A stretch of 64,000 nucleotides of DNA from a phage, in sequence record PZ674596.1; one strand, written 5' to 3'. The first letter of the stretch is position 1; each line of letters opens with the position of its first letter. Of this stretch, positions 294 to 63,368 are shown piece by piece. The translations under genes were made by a program, and so were the position numbers. The notes below the pieces were generated by a model, which worked only from the letters and a program-made list of their open reading frames with translations, was not told where the DNA came from and did no database searches.

Positions 294-388
294 ACAAAAC
301 AGCCTTAATGATAAGTAACCACTTACGATAGATGATGATATATTTATATAAGAAGTTGAACGCTCATTAGAGAACAAAGGAAAAACGC

Positions 389-5880: not shown

Positions 5881-5997
5881 TTTTTGATAGATAATAAGTA
5901 AGTACTGATCTATCATTTAACAGCTCGAAAGAGCCACGAATGAACGAAAGCCCAACGCGCATAGCGCCATCGGCCAAATCACAACAAGGAGAAACAC

Positions 5998-9377: not shown

Positions 9378-9402
9378 AAGGCGTCCACAGGACGCCTTTT
9401 TT
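9378..9402 (+). terminator. Rho-independent terminator
   Basis: AAGGCGTCC-aca-GGACGCCTT followed by TTTT. Confidence 0.7.
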
Positions 9403-9465
9403 ATCTCTTGAAAATATATAAGTACTTACTTATTATTTTCGCATAACAACCACATAGGAAAACAC

Positions 9466-11017: not shown

Positions 11018-11072
11018 TCGCCTATTCATAACTAACAAAATAAGTAAACACTAACCACAAAAGGAAAAACAC

Positions 11073-11348
11073 ATGAGAGTTTTAGTTCGAATCGTTACCA
11101 CCACTGTCTATGACGTGTTTCCGCTTTTTATGGTCAAAGTCGATGGCCTTAACGATGAAGAAACTGACGCGCTGATCCAGCGTACTCTTGTTGAATATAC
11201 AGGTCATGACGCTGATTCAGTGATGGTTGATGACGATGGTGTTTGTTGGCATAACGGCAACTGTTGGTACGTAGAAGAGACTCAACAAATCAGTAATGAA
11301 GATGCTGAACATCTTGAGCGTATTTTAAGCATCAGCACTTTTGAGTGA
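11073..11348 (+). CDS. hypothetical protein
   Basis: 91 aa; conserved start context AAAAGGAAAAACACATG. Confidence 0.4.
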   Translation: MRVLVRIVTTTVYDVFPLFMVKVDGLNDEETDALIQRTLVEYTGHDADSVMVDDDGVCWHNGNCWYVEETQQISNEDAEHLERILSISTFE

Positions 11349-11563
11349 GTTTACAGTAAAGTTTATATAAGTTAGTATCTACCTATCATGAAGATTTTTA
11401 TTGAATACTTGTTACTCATCGTTTCAATAGCTTTTGTCATCGACTGCATTTTCACTGGTGTCATTCGTAAAGTCTTTTCCCCGGTGCACGACGTAGTCAT
11501 AAACGCTTTGGCTATCGTGCTCGTATTTAATTCAGCATTTGATGTAATCAAAGAGGTGGCAGC

Positions 11564-14751: not shown

Positions 14752-15005
14752 CCCTCCAGATCGTATATTGGCGTAGATAGAATCTACGCCTCCTCAAAAT
14801 AGCTCTCATAGCGTTCTACAGTGATCCTGTCTTATTTTTAGTCATACAGACAAGCAAAGTTGCGCCACAATAAATAGGTATATACTTACTTATAAATTTT
14901 GTATATTAAGGCGCTCGTTTCATTCATAACATACCGTTATGCATAGTTGTTTACCTTCTCATTGCTCTTAAAATTTGTATCAAAATAACCACAAAGGAAA
15001 AACAC

Positions 15006-19549: not shown

Positions 19550-19583
19550 TTTCATTGATAGGTAAGTGCTTATCTATTAACAT

Positions 19584-19614
19584 GGGCCACTATATTTAGT
19601 GGCCCTCTTTATTT
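19584..19614 (+). terminator. Rho-independent terminator
   Basis: GGGCCACTA-tatt-TAGTGGCCC followed by T-rich run. Confidence 0.6.
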
Positions 19615-24134: not shown

Positions 24135-24203
24135 TTGTAGGTAGTTATCTATCTGTGTATATTGCGCTGGCGCGTTAAATTTCTGAAACAACTATTCGTT
24201 TTT

Positions 24204-24228
24204 GGTGGCCTATGGCCACCATTTTTTT
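24204..24228 (+). terminator. Rho-independent terminator
   Basis: GGTGGCC-tat-GGCCACC followed by TTTTTTT. Confidence 0.7.
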
Positions 24229-24305
24229 ATCTGTCTGGTCTTGTTCTCTCAATAAATGTAAACTCACGCAATGAATAAGTGGTTACTTATCTTTGTGAGG
24301 TTTTT

Positions 24306-29860: not shown

Positions 29861-29922
29861 TTGATTGCCAGACATAAAATCAAATGCAAAAATAGGTATA
29901 TACTTACCTATCGAGAAAGAAG

Positions 29923-30537: not shown

Positions 30538-30595
30538 AGCCTGCTTCTGTATATATAAATAACTACATATTAATTATTAATATACGGAAGCAGGC
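30538..30595. repeat. large AT-rich palindrome (copy 1 of 2)
   Basis: AGCCTGCTTCTGTATATATAAAT...ATATACGGAAGCAGGC; near-identical arms recur at 63197-63251. Confidence 0.7.
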
Positions 30596-30701: not shown

Positions 30702-30932
30702 ATGTCATACCCGACTAATGTCGTTGCGCTCGTAGAGAGCGATTTTCTGGCCCAGGCTCGTGAAATGATGAAAGATCGTGAGCAGGCTTTCAACTTGTAC
30801 GAATGGGCAATTAAGTGCTTGCATCTTGGCGAGCATCGCGAACTTGTTGAACAGCTTTTAGGTGAGTTGATCAATGAGGTGTTTGCCTTGAATGTTCAAC
30901 TACATGGTAGAGAAAATAATCAATCACAATGA
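30702..30932 (+). CDS. hypothetical protein
   Basis: 76 aa from ATG after AAGGAAACC; table ORF starts 24 nt earlier. Confidence 0.4.
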   Translation: MSYPTNVVALVESDFLAQAREMMKDREQAFNLYEWAIKCLHLGEHRELVEQLLGELINEVFALNVQLHGRENNQSQ

Positions 30933-31514
30933 TAGATAAGTACAAACTATTCATAAAGTGAATTGTAAGTGCTAAGATCTGATAGTTTCCAGTCGTAGAC
31001 TGGAGACTCGACCTGATGGGTGGGGGTAAGCGTCACTGGCGTCAGGTTTAAAAAAGCTCACTACCAGCGTAGAACTGGTGCCGTTTAGGTGTCGGGGAAG
31101 GGGGAACCAAAGTGAGCAGAGACAAGGGTCACTTTATGATTGTCGAGTCTGGGGTGTTTCGAGAGGTTGAATCCAGTACTCCCCTTCATAAAGTGTGGGA
31201 AGATCTCGGTTCTGGGGTGCTGTCATCCATAACTTCCCAAGTCTAAGCTGGCAGTAGACTTAGACCATAACTTTTCAGGTTATGAAACGACCAGGTTGGT
31301 GAGAGATTTTTATACTCACCTCCCTGGGAGAGTATTACCTGAAAAGACAACCTCTCACTTCGTTCGAGGTGAACTTCACTCACTTCGTTCGTTCAGTTCA
31401 GGTTTATAAAAACCTGTTCTGGGAAGTAATTTGTTTATTTTAATAATTATTAACACGCACGCGTGTGCGCACGCGCGAGGAAAAATCGGCGCGGCGCTTG
31501 ATTCAGGAGTTTAT

Positions 31515-32105
31515 ATGACGACGAAGACACCAGCCCGATCGCAAGCAAAAACTCGCAAAAAAGCCAAAAACAAAAATTCCCCCCGCACCAATCCCACAAC
31601 GCCTGTCGTAGAGTTCAATCCCCAGCTTAAAACCGTGAAAATCTTTAGTGATGGCTCTTGCCTTAAAAATCCGGGTGGCCCGGGCGGTTACGGTATCGTT
31701 CTCCAGTATCGTGGTGAGGAACGCGAGTTCTCAGATGGTTTTCATAGCACCACCAATAACCGCATGGAGATGATGGGGGCACTTATCGGGCTGGAGCGTT
31801 TGAAATATCCATGCAACGTTATTTTGCACTCTGATAGCCAGTATCTGAAAAACGGCATGACACAGTGGATGAAATGGTGGAAACGCAATGGATGGATGAC
31901 TTCTGACAAAAAACCGGTAAAGAATGTTGATCTGTGGAAGCGTCTGGATGAGGCCGCAAGTCGACATAATGTTCGCTGGAAGTGGGTTAAAGGTCACGCC
32001 GGGCATCGTGAAAATGAAATATGTGATCGACTCGCGAAGATCGCAGCTTTTTCAGCAGCAGATATGCCTCACAAGAAAGATATTGGTTTTGTTTATAATA
32101 AATAG
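31515..32105 (+). CDS. rnhA: ribonuclease HI with basic N-terminal extension
   Basis: Near-complete match to RNase HI core ([35 protein letters not shown]); start at ATG 31515 after CAGGAG. Confidence 0.85.
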
Positions 32106-32253
32106 TAAGTAAGTGTTTACCTATCATTTTAAATCATGTATCTTATCGGCGTCAGGATGACAATGTGTCGGTAAGACACAGTTCCAGGATGGAACGAGAA
32201 AGGCGGCTGGCAATCGCCAGCCGCAACTCTTTCTGACACTGGATGGAGTCCAC

Positions 32254-32748
32254 ATGGCACGTCAAACCTATTTCACTTCTGTAACTAAACGCCCTCGTTC
32301 TTTACGTCAAATTTTGGCCGAATTATTTAGCGGTCGTGTTATGTCACGCCTTGAAGAACTAGAGACTACCGTTCGGTTGCTGAATGAACGTTTAGATAAT
32401 CAAGCGTCAGTTGTTGCGAACGTGGGGGCGATTGTTGCCTCTGGCTCTTCACGCGAAGCGAAAAATGCACGGCCTTTAGTGAAGGAGAAAAACAACAAGG
32501 ACAGTTCGAATGGAAAATTTTCAAAGAAAGAGGCTGAAACCAATGGCCTACGTTCTCATTATAGTTTCACTGGCGACGGTAGCCGTTCCAGCCGGTCAGA
32601 GCCTTTTGATGCCGGATTCATCCATCACCACACCTTCGTCGACGACAATTACCACCACTCCAGTGGAGCGTCCTGTCACTCTGGATGGGATGGCGGTGGA
32701 TGCGATACCTCAAGTTCATCCAGTTACTCAGGATCATGCTGTGACTAA
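32254..32748 (+). CDS. hypothetical protein (frame uncertain)
   Basis: 164 aa; 3' part is low-complexity S/G/C-rich and overlaps an alternative frame 32510..32761. Confidence 0.3.
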   Translation: MARQTYFTSVTKRPRSLRQILAELFSGRVMSRLEELETTVRLLNERLDNQASVVANVGAIVASGSSREAKNARPLVKEKNNKDSSNGKFSKKEAETNGLRSHYSFTGDGSRSSRSEPFDAGFIHHHTFVDDNYHHSSGASCHSGWDGGGCDTSSSSSYSGSCCD

Positions 32749-34470: not shown

Positions 34471-36156
34471 ATGAATACAGCCCTTTCCATCATCGACGAT
34501 GCCAGCTCAAACACGGCTATCGACTATCGTCAGGAAATGAATGTCATCCACGAAATCGTGGCCGAGTGCGAGAAAGAGATCGCCTTCATGTATCAGGTAC
34601 ACGACTTCGTTTATGGCGACGAACGCCACAACATGATTAATCGCCTGCTGAGACTAAACCATCGACCAGATGAAGATCGCTCGCGTTTAAATCGAGGTTG
34701 GTTGGATAAAGTCGATCTGGAATGGGTGAAACAGAATATTTGGGCCGAGTACTGGAGGAAGGTCACGGACATGACTAACGTTTTGCTGATCATGCCAGCT
34801 TCCCGTCGAGATGAGTGGCGCGAGCAGTTTATAGAGGGCAAACAGGAAGTCATCAAAACTGACAGAACCGGCTACCAGATGAAGGTTAAAGAGTTCGTTG
34901 GTGTACCGGAGTTCAAAGCAGAAACGGTCATACCCACGATGCTTAATTTGCTGAATGACAGGCACAAATATCTCTCTGAGCGCGTGTATGGCTTGTTTAA
35001 GGCGCTGAGTCCTGCGCACAAGACAAATAAGACAAACGGTTTCAGCGAGCGGCTGATAATCGCTGACTGCATTTCTGATTTCTGGCGGGACAGCGTTAGC
35101 GTGAACTATCGCAAAGAGGACTACATCGACGATCTGCGTGTCTTGCTTCATTTCTTCGCGCACAAAGAATTTATTACCATCAACCGCACTGCTGAGGTGC
35201 TATCAGCTGCGTATCGGGCAAACGACTGCCAGACCGGTGACTGGATGAACGTCGATGGAAATCTGATGCGCGTGAAGATGTTCAAGAACGGCAACGTTCA
35301 CTTTGAAATACATCCTGACGTGGCCTGGAAGTTGAATGAGGTGCTGGCTTACAGTATGCCTGCTGCAATCCCCGCGCCATGTCGCACCGCGCCAAAAACA
35401 CGGGCACCAAAGCAGTTCGGGTTAATCCAGAAGACGATCTCCGTGCCGGTTCGCACTGCGCTTCGTGACGGGCGATTGAGCAAAGACAAAGGCGTATGGT
35501 ACTTCTCTGATTCAGCTCTCCAGAAGTCGCAGGTGGAAGAGCTTGAGCGCACACTGAGCTTCATTGGCGGCGTGCAGGAGAAAAAACACTGGCAGTTCCC
35601 GTATGACATCGTCCATACGCTAAATACGATTGTGGCTACCGGATTAATACCGGATACAAAATCACACCAGTTCTACCCTACCCCACGCTTGATTGCTGAG
35701 TACGTTGCCAGAGCCACTGAATTGAAGCCTGGTGAGAAGCTGCTGGAGCCTCAAGCCGGACGTGGGGATCTTCTGGCCTATATTAACGCCGATCTGGAAG
35801 ATGTTACCTGCATAGAAATCGCACCTCTCTTCGCTGATATCCTGCGTGGAAAAGGGTATACGAACACGATTTGCTGCGACTTCATAAAGTGGTCTGAGGA
35901 CAACGCAGGTTATCAGTTCGACAAAATCGTTATGAACCCGCCGTACTCGCTTGGTCGTCATAGAGAGCACACTCTGGCTGCGCTTGGGCATCTGAAAGTC
36001 GGCGGGCGTCTTGTAGCAGTATTGCCGGGCACTGCGCCAATACTGGACTGGATGACGATGGATAATTACGTTTATGCCAGAGGGAAGTCGTTTACCAACG
36101 AGTTTGAAGACACAGGGATCACAGTCAGCGTATACGTTTTCAAACGCGTTAAATGA
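34471..36156 (+). CDS. large protein with C-terminal N6-adenine DNA methyltransferase domain
   Basis: 561 aa; SAM-binding-like LEPQAGRGDL then catalytic VMNPPYS near C-terminus; ~400 aa N-terminal region of unknown function. Confidence 0.6.
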   Translation: MNTALSIIDDASSNTAIDYRQEMNVIHEIVAECEKEIAFMYQVHDFVYGDERHNMINRLLRLNHRPDEDRSRLNRGWLDKVDLEWVKQNIWAEYWRKVTDMTNVLLIMPASRRDEWREQFIEGKQEVIKTDRTGYQMKVKEFVGVPEFKAETVIPTMLNLLNDRHKYLSERVYGLFKALSPAHKTNKTNGFSERLIIADCISDFWRDSVSVNYRKEDYIDDLRVLLHFFAHKEFITINRTAEVLSAAYRANDCQTGDWMNVDGNLMRVKMFKNGNVHFEIHPDVAWKLNEVLAYSMPAAIPAPCRTAPKTRAPKQFGLIQKTISVPVRTALRDGRLSKDKGVWYFSDSALQKSQVEELERTLSFIGGVQEKKHWQFPYDIVHTLNTIVATGLIPDTKSHQFYPTPRLIAEYVARATELKPGEKLLEPQAGRGDLLAYINADLEDVTCIEIAPLFADILRGKGYTNTICCDFIKWSEDNAGYQFDKIVMNPPYSLGRHREHTLAALGHLKVGGRLVAVLPGTAPILDWMTMDNYVYARGKSFTNEFEDTGITVSVYVFKRVK

Positions 36157-36217
36157 TAGGTAAATACTTACCTAATTTGTGTAAGAATGTAGTTACTAAA
36201 CGATAAGAGAAAAACAC

Positions 36218-36922
36218 ATGAACAACCTCCAGTTAGAGCATTTTAACGTCACAGGCCATTCTGATTTTCCTTTCAAGTTTACATTGAAAGGTTATGCAGA
36301 GGATGCGGTAGGCCAGATCATTATTGATAAAGGCATCGTTAAGTTTGAGGGGAATTTTGATGAATCCGCGAAAACATTCATAGACTTCGTTGCCAAACGT
36401 TGGAGCGAGCAATGGAAAGACCTGGAAAAGCGCGCTAATGAGTTTGATCGGTTCATGGATGCAATGGATACAGCAAAAGAGGCTCTTGCTGCCGGGACTC
36501 CGTTAGATCTGGAGTCACTTTTCAACGGCGAAGTGGCCTCTGCGATGTTCGCCACCATGTTCGCGGGTGAGTTCGTCCGCAGCGGTGCCAAAAACTACCT
36601 TGAGCTGGATTACAACGTCCCTGCAATTGGCGACTTCGTCGTTACCATCCAACGCAAAGAAGGTAAGACGCCAGGTGAACGCGTCGCAGAGCTTGAGGCC
36701 GTTGTGGATCAGCGTAACGGAGAGTGTGACCGTTTGATCAACGAGCTTCATGCACTTCGGGAAGAAAGAATATGTGCGGGTAGCAATACACGTAATGCTG
36801 CGGATATCTACTTCCAGTTAGTCGAGGAATGCCAGATTCCACCAGGTGGCTCTCTTGTCGATTACGTCAGACATTTAATGGCGGAAGTTAACTCCAGCCA
36901 TAAAGATGGTGAGGTGCGCTGA
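36218..36922 (+). CDS. hypothetical protein (shares C-terminal module with 39406..40098)
   Basis: 234 aa; C-terminal NTRNAADIYFQLVEECQIPPGGSLVDYV also present in a second protein. Confidence 0.5.
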   Translation: MNNLQLEHFNVTGHSDFPFKFTLKGYAEDAVGQIIIDKGIVKFEGNFDESAKTFIDFVAKRWSEQWKDLEKRANEFDRFMDAMDTAKEALAAGTPLDLESLFNGEVASAMFATMFAGEFVRSGAKNYLELDYNVPAIGDFVVTIQRKEGKTPGERVAELEAVVDQRNGECDRLINELHALREERICAGSNTRNAADIYFQLVEECQIPPGGSLVDYVRHLMAEVNSSHKDGEVR

Positions 36923-42418: not shown

Positions 42419-42943
42419 ATGACTAAATTTGGAAAGCTGGAAGCTCATTTGCTAACTCGTAACTACCGCCATGATGTGCATCCATATAGACAGTGGATCG
42501 ATGAAAGCGAAGGAGTTGTTACATTCCCTCTATACAGGTTTGATGGGATGTTGGCCGGGTATCAGACATACAGACCAGGCGCTCCTAAGCAGCATAGCAA
42601 TCCGAAGATGGCCCGGTATTTCACACGAGCGCACGGCAGACAGCTACTATGGGGAACCTATCTTCCTTTAAAAGATGGACCGATATGGATAACTGAGTCG
42701 ATTTTTAAAAGTGCAGCAGTGCACAACGCGGGCGGAAATTCGTGGGCGCTGTTAGGTTCGACTTTCTCAGCAGGATTACGTCGTCAACTGGCAATGCTGC
42801 CGTATGACTTTCGCGTAATAGGTGACAATGATGCGGCTGGTGAATCACTTGTGAAGTCTTTCGGAAAAGGTTTTGTGGCCCCGGATCTTGACGAGCTACA
42901 ACCAAATGAAGTGTCTCATTTGATTTTTAGCCATAGCCAATAA
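42419..42943 (+). CDS. Toprim-like domain protein (tentative)
   Basis: 174 aa from ATG 42419; acidic motifs ITESIF and GDNDAAGE spaced like Toprim E and DxD. Confidence 0.4.
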   Translation: MTKFGKLEAHLLTRNYRHDVHPYRQWIDESEGVVTFPLYRFDGMLAGYQTYRPGAPKQHSNPKMARYFTRAHGRQLLWGTYLPLKDGPIWITESIFKSAAVHNAGGNSWALLGSTFSAGLRRQLAMLPYDFRVIGDNDAAGESLVKSFGKGFVAPDLDELQPNEVSHLIFSHSQ

Positions 42944-42959
42944 GCATCCCTTCTCCATT

Positions 42960-43022
42960 AAGGCCACTAGTTGTGGCCTTAAACAATTTGTTTTCTACCT
43001 TTTCTTGTTCGAGAAAATAACG
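42960..43022 (+). promoter_or_regulatory. conserved terminator-promoter cassette
   Basis: AAGGCCACTAGTTGTGGCCTT followed by AAACAATTTGTTTTCTACCTTTTCTTGTTCGAGAAAATAAC. Confidence 0.55.
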
Positions 43023-43079
43023 TTCATTTGTCTGGTGCTATGTACCGATCAGTTGCACTGAGTGAGCTTCTTTCATGTA

Positions 43080-50473: not shown

Positions 50474-50537
50474 GTATTGTAAGTACATACTTACGATCAT
50501 AGAATATAAAAATAATCAAAACACTACGGAGAGTGAA

Positions 50538-54622: not shown

Positions 54623-55144
54623 TCAAAACGGTAAAATTCGTTCAACCCAATCGAAGAATACAAGTGTTTTTCTGCCGTCTTCTAACTTAAGAGTGACCTG
54701 GCAAGCATCAACGCCTCTTGATATCCCTTCTATTTCACGACCGTCTGCCATGTAGACCCTTATAGATTTGCCGTTTTGGTAAGCCTGACGACATATCTTA
54801 AAAAAGTCACGACGTGATGGCTGATTGTCAACATAGTCTGGATGTATTGTTAGCCTACCTTTGAACTCGCGAGCAATGCCATCGATTACACCTGATTCAA
54901 TTGTGCTAATGCGCTCAAGTGGGAGTCTTATACGATTTTCTTTATCATATGGAAGCGGGCATAAATCTAGCTTATTGCGGGAAGGCATTGTCCCCTGAAC
55001 GTACATGCAAAACACCTGACCGTCTTCAAGCGTGACTCTTACAGGAATGTTGTTTTTCCGCCAGAACATAAGTATGTTTTCAGCATGTTCGTAGTCTCGT
55101 GGCCAGACTTCTGCTGGAATGCCGTAGGTGATGTCTTTAACCAT
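54623..55144 (-). CDS. hypothetical protein with internal tandem repeat of ~80-aa domain (weak Sm/Hfq-like signature)
   Basis: 173 aa; halves share R..N.IPVRVTLEDGQV / GKSIRVYMADGREIEG pattern; ends 3 nt before the secreted-protein gene. Confidence 0.45.
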   Translation of the reverse strand: MVKDITYGIPAEVWPRDYEHAENILMFWRKNNIPVRVTLEDGQVFCMYVQGTMPSRNKLDLCPLPYDKENRIRLPLERISTIESGVIDGIAREFKGRLTIHPDYVDNQPSRRDFFKICRQAYQNGKSIRVYMADGREIEGISRGVDACQVTLKLEDGRKTLVFFDWVERILPF

Positions 55145-59916: not shown

Positions 59917-59998
59917 AAACCTCTTTCCTTAGTGCCTTTTGTATGTTATTTGGCTATTATAATAAGTAAGTGATTACTTAGTGGATTGTAGCAATAAA

Positions 59999-60679
59999 AT
60001 GGATGTAAAAATCACGATTTTGCAGGTTGATGTTGCCAACCTTCGCCCGAATACCTGGAACACCAATTCGGTTGGTGCGCAGAATTTTGAAAAACTGAAA
60101 GGTTCTATCGAAAAATTGGGCTTTTTTAAGCCAATTTTGGCTCGTGAACTTGAAGATGGATTTTTTGAAATCCTCGGCGGCGAACATCGCTGGCGTGCTG
60201 CTATTGAGCAAGGAATTTCAACGGTTCCGGTGCTTTCTGTGGGCAAAATTAGCGATGTCGTAGCTAAACAGATGTCACTGGTGGACAACGAGCGATACGG
60301 TGAAGACGACCAAATCGCATTGCAACGCTTCATTGAAGAAATTCAGTCAGAACTTGACTATCAACTGTCTGAAATCGCCCCGTATGACGACGAAATCTCG
60401 ATGGTTTTAGCAAAAGAGGCGGCAATCGACCTTGAAGCACTGGAGGCGTTGTCTCGTGGTAGTGATGAGCCTGTCGATACCGACAAACGAGAGAAAACCG
60501 AACGTGTGGGTGCGGAACATCAGACCATGCGCTTCAAAGTAACTTTCGATGCGTCAGATCGTGTTGCAGAAACCATAAAAAACATCATCAAAGAGCAGGC
60601 TATTAACACCGGTAATGAAATGGAGAACGCTGGTGAGGCTCTGGTGTGGCTGGTCGACTACTACAAGGAGCGTATGTAA
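59999..60679 (+). CDS. ParB N-terminal-domain (ParB/Srx-like) protein 1
   Basis: GGEHRWRAA ParB box-II-like motif; start uncertain (ATG 59999 or GTG 59981). Confidence 0.5.
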   Translation: MDVKITILQVDVANLRPNTWNTNSVGAQNFEKLKGSIEKLGFFKPILARELEDGFFEILGGEHRWRAAIEQGISTVPVLSVGKISDVVAKQMSLVDNERYGEDDQIALQRFIEEIQSELDYQLSEIAPYDDEISMVLAKEAAIDLEALEALSRGSDEPVDTDKREKTERVGAEHQTMRFKVTFDASDRVAETIKNIIKEQAINTGNEMENAGEALVWLVDYYKERM

Positions 60680-63172: not shown

Positions 63173-63196
63173 TCGGTCTGGGAGCTTATTTAAAGA

Positions 63197-63251
63197 CCTG
63201 CTTCTGTATATATAAATAATAAGTAACTTATTAAATATATACGGAAGCAGG
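63197..63251. repeat. large AT-rich palindrome (copy 2 of 2)
   Basis: CCTGCTTCTGTATATATAAATAATAAGTAACTTATTAAATATATACGGAAGCAGG; centre is ATAAGT-A-ACTTAT. Confidence 0.7.
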
Positions 63252-63368
63252 CTTAGTAAGACATGCCCAGACCTAATTAAACACCCCAGAAAACAAGTTG
63301 GTTAGCATACGCAGTAAACAAGTTGTTTTAGAGCGCATGGACGCGCTCTGTGTGTTTTAGAGGGATCT

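Follow-up and report, generated by a model that had tools for sequence, protein, structure and literature searches.

Dispersed binding sites for a single regulator are known from several phages and plasmids. P1 forms a plasmid prophage, in which the master repressor C1 reportedly acts at many scattered operators that lie before replication, methylase and other lytic genes. The C1 operators are asymmetric 17-mers (ATTGCTCTAATAAATTT), and the late genes of P1 are served by a separate, Lpa-dependent promoter class. In phiC31, the repressor binds a 17-bp palindrome, the CIR, which is found at approximately 18 intergenic places; the CIRs occur only in the early region, in association with a special promoter class. 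The KorB sites (O_B) of the IncP plasmid RK2 and the sites of Noc/ParB proteins are also dispersed palindromes, which lie at variable distances from promoters. The stoperators of the cluster A mycobacteriophages (L5 gp71, Bxb1, TipsytheTRex) comprise approximately 24-30 repressor-binding sites distributed genome-wide, most of them in short gaps between genes but some inside late structural operons, with one operator at the early lytic promoter (PMC9283540, PMC6550527). Each stoperator is an asymmetric sequence of 13-14 bp that is bound by a monomeric two-domain repressor, and the stoperators work in one orientation relative to transcription (PMC9283540, PMC6550527).

We analysed a stretch of 64,000 nucleotides of phage DNA (PZ674596.1, hereafter the window) with a recurrent palindrome, of which there are approximately 15 copies in the window and 30 in the whole element. 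Most likely, these are the sites where one plasmid-encoded repressor silences the virus genes. Like stoperators, the sites of this phage-plasmid number approximately 30, are dispersed and intergenic, and extend into the late operon. Unlike stoperators, each is a palindrome of 18-22 bp, which implies a dimer, and the two kinds of site show no sequence relationship; the Gram-negative host and the plasmid prophage also set this element apart from the stoperator phages. Because the site is symmetric to ±11, it is not a strict stoperator and at most works like one. The element resembles P1 in being a plasmid prophage with many scattered candidate repressor operators, and differs from it in that the motif runs through the late operon too. 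It shares with the phiC31 CIRs a repeated intergenic palindrome, although the sequence and the repressor family are unrelated. As in the KorB and Noc systems, there is a ParB-family gene with a site just upstream; unlike O_B and NBS/parS, however, the motif is least conserved at its centre. The control system is thus of an ordinary, known kind, and it is without an earlier description for an SSU5-type element: searches of the searchable literature with the motif strings, or for SSU5 together with operator, motif or repressor, returned no description of the motif.

A 5-kb stretch around the copy that was noted first (the index site) matches Escherichia phage CMS-2020a (CP053388.1) at 99.6% identity, phage Cyrano, which is the pLF82 phage-plasmid of E. 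coli LF82, at 98.3% and Salmonella phage SSU5 at 76.6%. Judged by sequence, the window belongs to an SSU5-like phage-plasmid of E. coli, the whole element being approximately 108 kb. Its gene content, read off the Cyrano annotation, begins at the end of a CobT-like gene, stops just short of the small terminase gene and includes dnaE, recombination genes, repA, sbcCD, nrdAB and the thymidylate synthase gene, a dam-like methylase gene, small accessory genes and a MinD-like/MetRS pair, and finally a low-GC minus-strand block and two parB-like genes. A terminase search of phage records showed no intermediate relatives, as identities were either at least 95% or below 60%, and a scan of genome contigs for relatives gave only 3 close loci.

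The original prediction described a recurrent TAAGT-N(1-5)-ACTTA palindrome. The recurrence is real, with 6 exact matches in the window against 0.24 expected. The variable spacer did not hold: when each spacer length was counted separately, only N4 was enriched (5 perfect matches in the window against 0.05 expected, and 11 against 1.7 when up to one mismatch was allowed), so that a spacer of 1-5 nt was ruled out as the true form of the motif. Smaller excesses at N0 and N8 are N4 sites read 4 nt out of register. Alignment of the sites gave the fixed geometry TAAGTA-NN-TACTTA as the core of an 18-22 bp palindrome. A matrix refined iteratively over Cyrano, SSU5 and a Klebsiella plasmid reads A-TA(A/G)G-TAAG-TA-CTTA-C(T/C)TA-T, which is a palindrome of 18-20 bp with a TA step each 4 nt. 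The mirror symmetry between the halves reaches ±11 nt, with GATAAGTAAGT as the left and ACTTACTTATC as the right half of the full consensus (GATA(A/G)GTAAGT and ACTTAC(T/C)TATC, respectively). The information content peaks in the outer TA..TA half-site positions and is lowest in the central 4-6 bp; strong outer half-sites around a weak centre are typical of Cro/CI-type HTH dimers.

Taking a weight-matrix score of at least 12 bits as the definition of a site, we found 18 in the window, where 0.17 would be expected by non-coding composition, and 17 of the 18 were non-coding (binomial P = 8e-14 for a non-coding share of 14%). The only site scored as coding, at 29891, sits in an over-called ORF. 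An intergenic frequency no higher than in coding sequence had been named beforehand as the result that would speak against the motif, and the opposite was observed. Eleven of the 12 places listed originally are matrix matches (310/312, 5893, 9413, 14873, 19557, 24270, 29891, 32104, 36155, 50478 and 59961), to which the matrix added sites at 11039, 11366 and 30931. The remaining place, the centre of a palindrome at 63.2 kb, has a spacer of 1 and is part of a separate large inverted repeat (CCTGCTTCTGTATATATAAATAA...ATATACGGAAGCAGGC) with a second copy at 30.54-30.60 kb; it is a different element from the dispersed motif and was removed from the list. The distance of 20-60 bp to the next start also had to be revised, as the next start codon was found to follow the 18-mer after 2-162 nt, with a median of approximately 40. 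The claimed absence from the host (MinD/MetRS) block and from the low-GC minus-strand block was borne out, since there are no sites from 36.2 to 50.4 kb and none from 50.5 to 59.9 kb. The sites of the window are listed below; no strand is assigned to any of them.

310..331, no strand: operator-like site GATAAGTAACCACTTACGATAG, from the CobT-like gene end to a cobS-like gene (start 389), 14.8 bits; it holds a perfect TAAGT-N4-ACTTA at 312-325 and has orthologous sites in SSU5 and Kp617.
5893..5914, no strand: site AATAAGTAAGTACTGATCTATC, between a uvsY-like gene (ends 5880) and a gp32-like SSB gene (start 5998), 26.6 bits; it occupies the spacer of the predicted promoter TAGATA-17-TATCAT (5888-5916).
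9413..9434, no strand: site AATATATAAGTACTTACTTATT, 3' of a terminator at 9378-9398 and before a membrane-protein gene (start 9466), 25.9 bits; it lies within the strong predicted promoter TTGAAA-17-TATTAT (9408-9436), which has 10/12 consensus matches.
11039..11060, no strand: weaker site AATAAGTAAACACTAACCACAA, 12-14 nt 5' of the start at 11073, 14.4 bits.
11366..11387, no strand: site TATAAGTTAGTATCTACCTATC, adjoining the ATG at 11388, 22.3 bits; it overlaps the predicted promoter TTTATA-16-TATCAT (11362-11389).
14873..14894, no strand: site AATAGGTATATACTTACTTATA, 5' of an sbcD-like gene (start 15006), 25.1 bits, with a positional counterpart in Acinetobacter.
19557..19578, no strand: site GATAGGTAAGTGCTTATCTATT, followed by a hairpin at 19584-19605 and then nrdA (start 19623), 27.4 bits; it lies in the spacer of the predicted promoter TTGATA-17-TAACAT (19555-19583).
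24136..24157, no strand: marginal site TGTAGGTAGTTATCTATCTGTG, directly 3' of the mazG-like stop codon, 12.1 bits and 9.6 in rescoring; its membership in the motif family is doubtful.
24270..24291, no strand: the index site AATGAATAAGTGGTTACTTATC, 3' of a terminator at 24203-24221 and 14 nt 5' of the thymidylate synthase GTG start (24306), 19.2 bits.
29891..29912, no strand: site AATAGGTATATACTTACCTATC, 10-12 nt 5' of the dam-like start (29923), 26.3 bits; it lies directly 3' of the conserved predicted promoter TTGCCA-17-(TGc)AAAAAT (29865-29893) and covers approximately -7 to +11.
30931..30952, no strand: weaker site GATAGATAAGTACAAACTATTC, in a long non-coding stretch past the dam-like gene, 19.3 bits and 10.6 with the symmetric matrix, with stronger versions in relatives.
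32104..32125, no strand: site AGTAAGTAAGTGTTTACCTATC, overlapping the stop codon of an RNase H gene (ends 32105) and 130 nt 5' of the start at 32254, 26.3 bits.
36155..36176, no strand: site GATAGGTAAATACTTACCTAAT, overlapping the stop codon of a DUF4942 gene (ends 36156) and 41-43 nt 5' of the start at 36218, 26.5 bits.
50478..50499, no strand: site TGTAAGTACATACTTACGATCA, 3' of a terminator hairpin and before a start at approximately 50538, 12.4 bits; it lies inside the predicted promoter TTGTAA-17-TAGAAT (50477-50505).
59961..59982, no strand: site AATAAGTAAGTGATTACTTAGT, in the divergent region that separates a uvsW-like helicase gene (minus strand, start 59916) from the first parB-like gene (start approximately 59999), 21.7 bits, with a counterpart in Acinetobacter.

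Beyond the site at 310, orthologous regions of the relatives also support those at 5893, 9413, 11039, 11366, 14873, 19557, 24270, 29891, 30931, 32104, 50478 and 59961. Over the whole Cyrano genome there are 33 sites, 30 of which are intergenic, while intergenic sequence makes up 13% of the genome. They are not limited to early genes: several lie at replication-gene junctions, and in the late structural region they are found at TerL/portal, after the major capsid gene, before the tail tube gene, and at the tailM/tailL, tail J/fibre and fibre/holin junctions. Orthologous junctions with the motif are present in SSU5, Klebsiella pKp_SB617_1, Kluyvera, Klebsiella pMB7868_2 and Y. pestis pFra. In pMB7868_2, a more divergent Klebsiella element, the centre is variable and the outer arms ATAAGTAA/TTACTTAT are kept; at one site-bearing junction, a Klebsiella relative instead carries a second motif, AAACAAnTTGTTT. 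In 13 orthologous intergenic regions, the identity of the relatives to the window was 0.77-0.84 within ±10 nt of the motif centre versus approximately 0.6 in the flanks, and by this measure the sites are conserved islands that appear to be under selection. Lytic genes have strong upstream sites, while the genes for plasmid maintenance and those expressed in lysogens (repA, parA, the toxin-antitoxin pairs, the repressor module and the low-GC block) are mostly without them (gene classes according to the expression table of PMC9928086). CYRAN_81, a lysogen-expressed gene, has a weak site 159 nt upstream, which counts against this fit to gene class.

A search with the Cyrano repressor protein led to A. 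baumannii plasmids of approximately 110 kb, which are syntenic phage-plasmids with a dispersed palindrome of their own, attattaGTAAGCGCTTACtaatat (also given in the version ttaGTAAGCGCTTACtaa), at approximately 28 intergenic places. Site-bearing junctions common to Acinetobacter and E. coli are TerL/portal, those around the capsid gene (MCP), tail tube, TMP/tailM, CobT/CobS, 5' of sbcD, 5' of parB and dnaB/primase. The core changes from GTAAG-TA-CTTAC in E. coli to GTAAG-CG-CTTAC in Acinetobacter, with different flanks, and the central dinucleotide of the Acinetobacter palindrome varies. The occupation of the same junctions suggests that the arrangement is old and that the motif was altered along with the element. 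The Acinetobacter repressor is a diverged homologue, in which the recognition-helix pattern N-x-N-x-x-S-x-I, invariant from E. coli to Acinetobacter, is kept; its predicted promoter, TTGGGT-17-TGaTATAAT, carries the spacing variant GTAAA-N6-CTTAC.

Whether the motif acts as a protein site or as a nucleic-acid structure was judged from its arms. Pairing of each half with its own partner (Watson-Crick or wobble) was no better than pairing of halves swapped between sites in each of 3 genomes (P = 0.4-0.8), and the compensatory changes that mark a terminator or structured RNA were not found. Arms without co-variation argue for a protein site, not a hairpin, and the RNA hairpin or terminator was rejected on this ground. 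A symmetric palindrome whose halves vary independently is what is expected for a dimeric DNA-binding protein. It is likely that the palindromes form the operator set of an element-encoded DNA-binding dimer that controls the lytic genes.

In Cyrano, CYRAN_45 is annotated as a putative repressor, and its expression in the lysogen is approximately 10-fold above the prophage background (PMC9928086); ciprofloxacin induces Cyrano 39-fold (PMC9928086). CYRAN_45 is a 128-aa XRE-type HTH protein, and its gene lies beside the integrase gene. The sole sigma-70-like promoter predicted upstream of the repressor gene, on the repressor strand, is TTTACA-16-TAATAT. The sequence GGTAAGTGCTTACC, which is the inner 14 bp of the consensus, begins 2 nt past the -10 of this promoter and covers approximately -5 to +9. 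This layout, with GGTAAGTGCTTACC on the start site, is kept in four lineages (Cyrano, CMS-2020a, Kp617 and Y. pestis pFra). In CMS-2020a, the nearest full-length relative, the repressor-promoter palindrome lies 2347 nt to the left of window position 1 and the gene approximately 2.3 kb to the left. The repressor-promoter copy reaches 10.8 bits in Cyrano and 13.6 in Kp617, which places it within roughly the top 30 matches of each genome, and in pMB7868_2 there are three sites in the intergenic region upstream of the repressor gene. As in a master-repressor operator set, an intergenic sequence is repeated above chance and a copy lies at the repressor promoter; with approximately 30 sites over roughly 60-70 sizeable intergenic regions, one site near the repressor gene is not strongly discriminating, and the Cyrano copy there has a low score.

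From position and co-conservation, we lean towards the XRE-family putative lysogeny repressor (CYRAN_45 in Cyrano) as the binder of the dispersed operators. A heteroimmune covariation of repressor and motif within the Enterobacteriaceae was looked for and rejected: the E. coli and Klebsiella repressors are 56% identical with the same motif in both, and the pMB7868_2 repressor is 47-49% diverged and shorter, yet the outer half-sites there are essentially the same. A PDB sequence search with the repressor gave no matches. Among other small regulators that were considered, none of the 67-aa, 88-aa and Cra-like ORFs, CYRAN_37 and CYRAN_46 received a DNA-binding function from PHROGs or Pfam; the regulator encoded at 54623-55144 is a FljA-like moron, and the S24 protein resembles UmuD.

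SSU5, a plaque-forming phage isolate, has no trace of the integrase-repressor module and has kept the sites. It parallels the lytic derivative D29, in which the repressor gene was lost and the stoperator sites were kept. D29 itself appears to have arisen from a temperate parent by deletion (PMC5712189).

The operator role might instead be served by another protein of the element, ParB1 (59999-60679), possibly together with ParB2, which would load at many palindromes in the manner of RK2 KorB or Noc and silence near or distant promoters. Residues 7-154 of ParB1 align with Spo0J/ParB/Noc structures and cover the N-terminal domain and, judging by the fold of Spo0J, the HTH region, whereas the match of ParB2 is limited to the N-terminal domain. 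Both proteins are conserved from E. coli to Acinetobacter, equally with the repressor, a strong site lies 16-22 nt 5' of parB1 in every lineage, and SSU5, without the XRE repressor, keeps both ParB genes and the sites. The sites of KorB and Noc are dispersed palindromes too, but they and ParB sites have conserved centres, whereas the central 4-6 bp of the present motif are least conserved and are free to vary in pMB7868_2. The element thus encodes a ParB-family protein with an HTH but lacks the strongly conserved centre of a ParB-type site. Moreover, Pfam detects only the ParB_N domain in ParB1, and this reading would not account for an operator at the point where transcription of the repressor gene is predicted to start. 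We therefore regard ParB1, although the main rival, as an improbable binder.

The relation of the sites to promoters bears on the mode of action. By sigma-70 consensus and simple-matrix prediction, in which the AT-rich palindrome is itself -10-like on both strands, promoters lie over 6 of the approximately 15 window sites, with the palindrome in the spacer (5888-5916, 9408-9436, 11362-11389, 19555-19583 and 50477-50505) or at the start site (29865-29893). The last of these ends on the first base of the palindrome and is kept in SSU5 and Kp617. The best promoter score near sites averaged 9.27 bits on the gene strand versus 7.27 on the opposite strand, and 57 of 90 sites on the gene strand reached at least 8 bits versus 31 of 90 on the opposite strand. 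The predicted -10 most often ends at 18-mer position 1 or begins at position 17 or 20. Terminator-like hairpins occur just before 3 sites (at 9378-9398, at 24203-24221 and before 50478), as expected for sites that head transcription units. The junctions that hold several of the late-operon sites measure 26-60 nt and could not accommodate a promoter and a leader; since no plausible promoter accompanies the TerL/portal and tail-junction sites, these cannot act by promoter occlusion.

The second option of the original prediction, a shared promoter element, could take the form of a site for a lytic-cycle activator or a dedicated promoter-recognition factor, the same protein repressing the repressor promoter. 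A -10-like TAnnnT begins at 18-mer position 17 in approximately half of the sites, a good -35 is missing at most of them, the Acinetobacter palindrome is directly followed by TATAAT/TAATAT, and the late promoters of P1 consist of a -10 and an upstream inverted repeat bound by Lpa. However, TAnnnT, seen on the right side as an apparent -10 TATCAT, occurs just as often on the mirror side (46 versus 46 of 90), which makes it a feature of the palindrome rather than a promoter element with a direction; for this reason, we rejected the reading of the downstream CTATC(AT) as a directional -10. The site lies in the spacer of some predicted promoters and at the start site of others, some of these promoters come so close to consensus (TTGAAA-17-TATTAT) that they need no activator, and some junctions, such as the 26-nt TerL/portal, are too short for a promoter and a leader. 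A single activator for early and late genes would also be unusual. The Acinetobacter element encodes a weak Sigma70_r2-like protein, which at 17.9 bits is below the Pfam cut-off; no sigma homologue was found in the enterobacterial elements, tblastn gave no counterpart of this gene in Cyrano, SSU5 or Kp617, and an element-encoded sigma factor was rejected. Variable placement over competent predicted promoters is the behaviour of a repressor operator, not of an activator site or a sigma element, and an activator or sigma role is accordingly unlikely, somewhat more so than binding by ParB1.

A role as RNA or DNA structure, whether as a hairpin between cistrons that serves as a processing site, terminator or translational operator, or as an insulator with stops in all frames, is very unlikely. 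Every site occupies a transcribed position between cistrons, on the gene strand, and in Cyrano many adjoin or overlap the upstream stop codon (gap -5 to +13 nt) and some adjoin the next ribosome-binding site, as such a role would suggest. Sequences of the TAGGTAAGTAA type hold stop codons in several frames, and in IMG/VR the exact 18-mer was found in 30 stretches, mostly as single copies, on approximately 25 distinct, mostly unrelated viral contigs. Against these points, the arm sequence itself is kept and not pairing alone, the stems would be AT-rich and weak, the distance to the start codon is widely spread, and the repressor-promoter copy lies on the other strand, at the predicted transcription start. 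Least probable of all, and likewise graded unlikely, is that the element borrows its regulation from the host, through a transcription factor that binds an AT-rich palindrome: the motif is identical across Escherichia, Salmonella, Klebsiella and Yersinia elements while the repressor diverges to 56-66% identity, but the motif in Acinetobacter changes together with the element proteins, and the consensus is not known to match an E. coli regulator site.

The operator option, that is, the operator set of one element-encoded regulator, fits all of the computational tests, including symmetry, orthologous conservation, the change in Acinetobacter, promoter overlap and the repressor-promoter copy. With the XRE repressor as the binder, we propose the following scheme. 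In the plasmid (lysogenic) state, the repressor would occupy approximately 30 consensus sites. Where these lie in the spacer or over the -10 or start site of sigma-70-type promoters that head transcription units, binding would exclude RNA polymerase, and the promoters blocked in this way would be those of the early replication and nucleotide-metabolism units. At late-operon junctions without a visible promoter, the bound protein may act as a stoperator-like roadblock. The weaker copy on the start site of the strong promoter of the repressor would provide negative autoregulation. The identity of the binder, the repression itself and the roadblock action are what we infer, whereas the motif with its statistics, symmetry and conservation, its overlap with promoter-like sequences and its copy at the repressor promoter were observed. 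Still more tentatively, and with more doubt than confidence, one may envisage a modular network of approximately 30 gene junctions, promoter-less late ones included, silenced by one XRE repressor or a ParB/KorB-like clamp. Such a network would be a palindromic, dimer-bound equivalent of the stoperators, ancient enough to extend from the Enterobacteriaceae, including S. Typhi pHCM2-type and Y. pestis pFra/pMT1 elements, to Acinetobacter, with a motif that co-evolves.

Clinical E. coli, Klebsiella, Salmonella (pHCM2) and Acinetobacter commonly carry SSU5-type phage-plasmids, and pFra/pMT1 of Y. pestis is built in large part from an SSU5-type backbone. How these elements silence their lytic genes has so far been without a description, and an operator consensus with approximately 30 mapped positions makes the lysogeny switch directly testable. 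The consensus also predicts immunity groups and provides a marker for annotating transcription units in SSU5-type plasmids. In addition, the element offers a Gram-negative system for asking whether dispersed repressor sites are transcription roadblocks.

A second recurrent palindrome, AAACAA-N-TTGTTT, distinct from the TAAGTA motif, was found in the window at the following positions.

Window 10563, 22001, 33003, 33732, 34446, 37354, 42981, 46919: AAACAA-N-TTGTTT, first eight copies
Window 46970, 48410, 49592, 50076, 50979, 51743, 63291, 63316: AAACAA-N-TTGTTT, other eight copies

Plus-strand start codons follow the palindrome at a distance of 15-45 nt, and it is usually preceded on its 5' side by an extended -10-like TGcGATAAT and 'cacc...AGA'. 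The accessory block at 37-52 kb is filled by this palindrome and is devoid of the TAAGTA motif, and in Cyrano, the pLF82 phage-plasmid of E. coli LF82, it is also located upstream of parA, dnaB, cobT and terS. In addition, the junction between recA and the membrane-protein gene carries AAACAA-N-TTGTTT in the Klebsiella plasmid pKp_SB617_1, whereas the TAAGTA motif occupies it in E. coli and in Salmonella phage SSU5. The AAACAA-N-TTGTTT set has the appearance of another regulon or class of promoters.

A large inverted repeat whose centre is AT-rich, (G)CCTGCTTCTGTATATATAAATAA...ATATACGGAAGCAGGC, also occurs twice in the window.

Window 30539-30595: large inverted repeat, copy 1, 3' of the dam-like gene
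Window 63196-63252: large inverted repeat, copy 2, directly 5' of terS

This repeat is kept in SSU5, pKp_SB617_1 and the Kluyvera element, and the Cyrano record begins within the centre of its second copy. Candidate roles for the repeat are terminator, recombination or packaging site, and origin. Downstream of the site at 30931, a long stretch (window 30950-31430) lacks convincing ORFs. Its equivalent in Cyrano contains CYRAN_81 (44 aa), the expression of which in lysogens is reported to be 12-fold above background (PMC9928086); the stretch could encode a small RNA or else a short peptide with a regulatory role.

Further regulatory candidates were noted in Cyrano and in the syntenic A. baumannii plasmid pCMCVTAb1-Ab66 (L016).

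Cyrano 42826-43038 (L002 6827-7039): small acidic protein gene, divergent from the XRE repressor
L016 19343-19537: small acidic protein gene, divergent from the XRE repressor
L016 15101-15766: gene with a sigma-70 family annotation

The E. coli and Acinetobacter elements each encode a small acidic protein (64-70 aa) that possesses no known domain; its gene diverges from that of the XRE repressor and occupies the position expected of a Cro-like gene, and the protein may act as an anti-repressor or switch partner. The sigma-70-annotated gene, located between a CobS-like gene and dnaE, matched Sigma70_r2 only below the threshold; in the enterobacterial elements, tblastn revealed no counterpart.

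The SSU5-like backbone of the plague plasmid pFra/pMT1 retains high-scoring copies of the TAAGTA motif, together with the repressor gene, which adjoins the caf1 capsule operon, and its promoter bearing the putative operator.

Y. pestis pFra (L049) 2360, 2687, 4728, 8251, 15297, 16777, 18234, 26152: TAAGTA motif copies

Finally, the low-GC block of the window contains a gene annotated as 'transcriptional regulator'.

Window 54623-55144, minus strand: FljA-type repressor gene

Its product matches Pfam PF03614 at E = 3e-82 and is an FljA-type repressor of phase-1 flagellin, present in full length. This gene is probably a moron, which could affect flagellin expression in the host.
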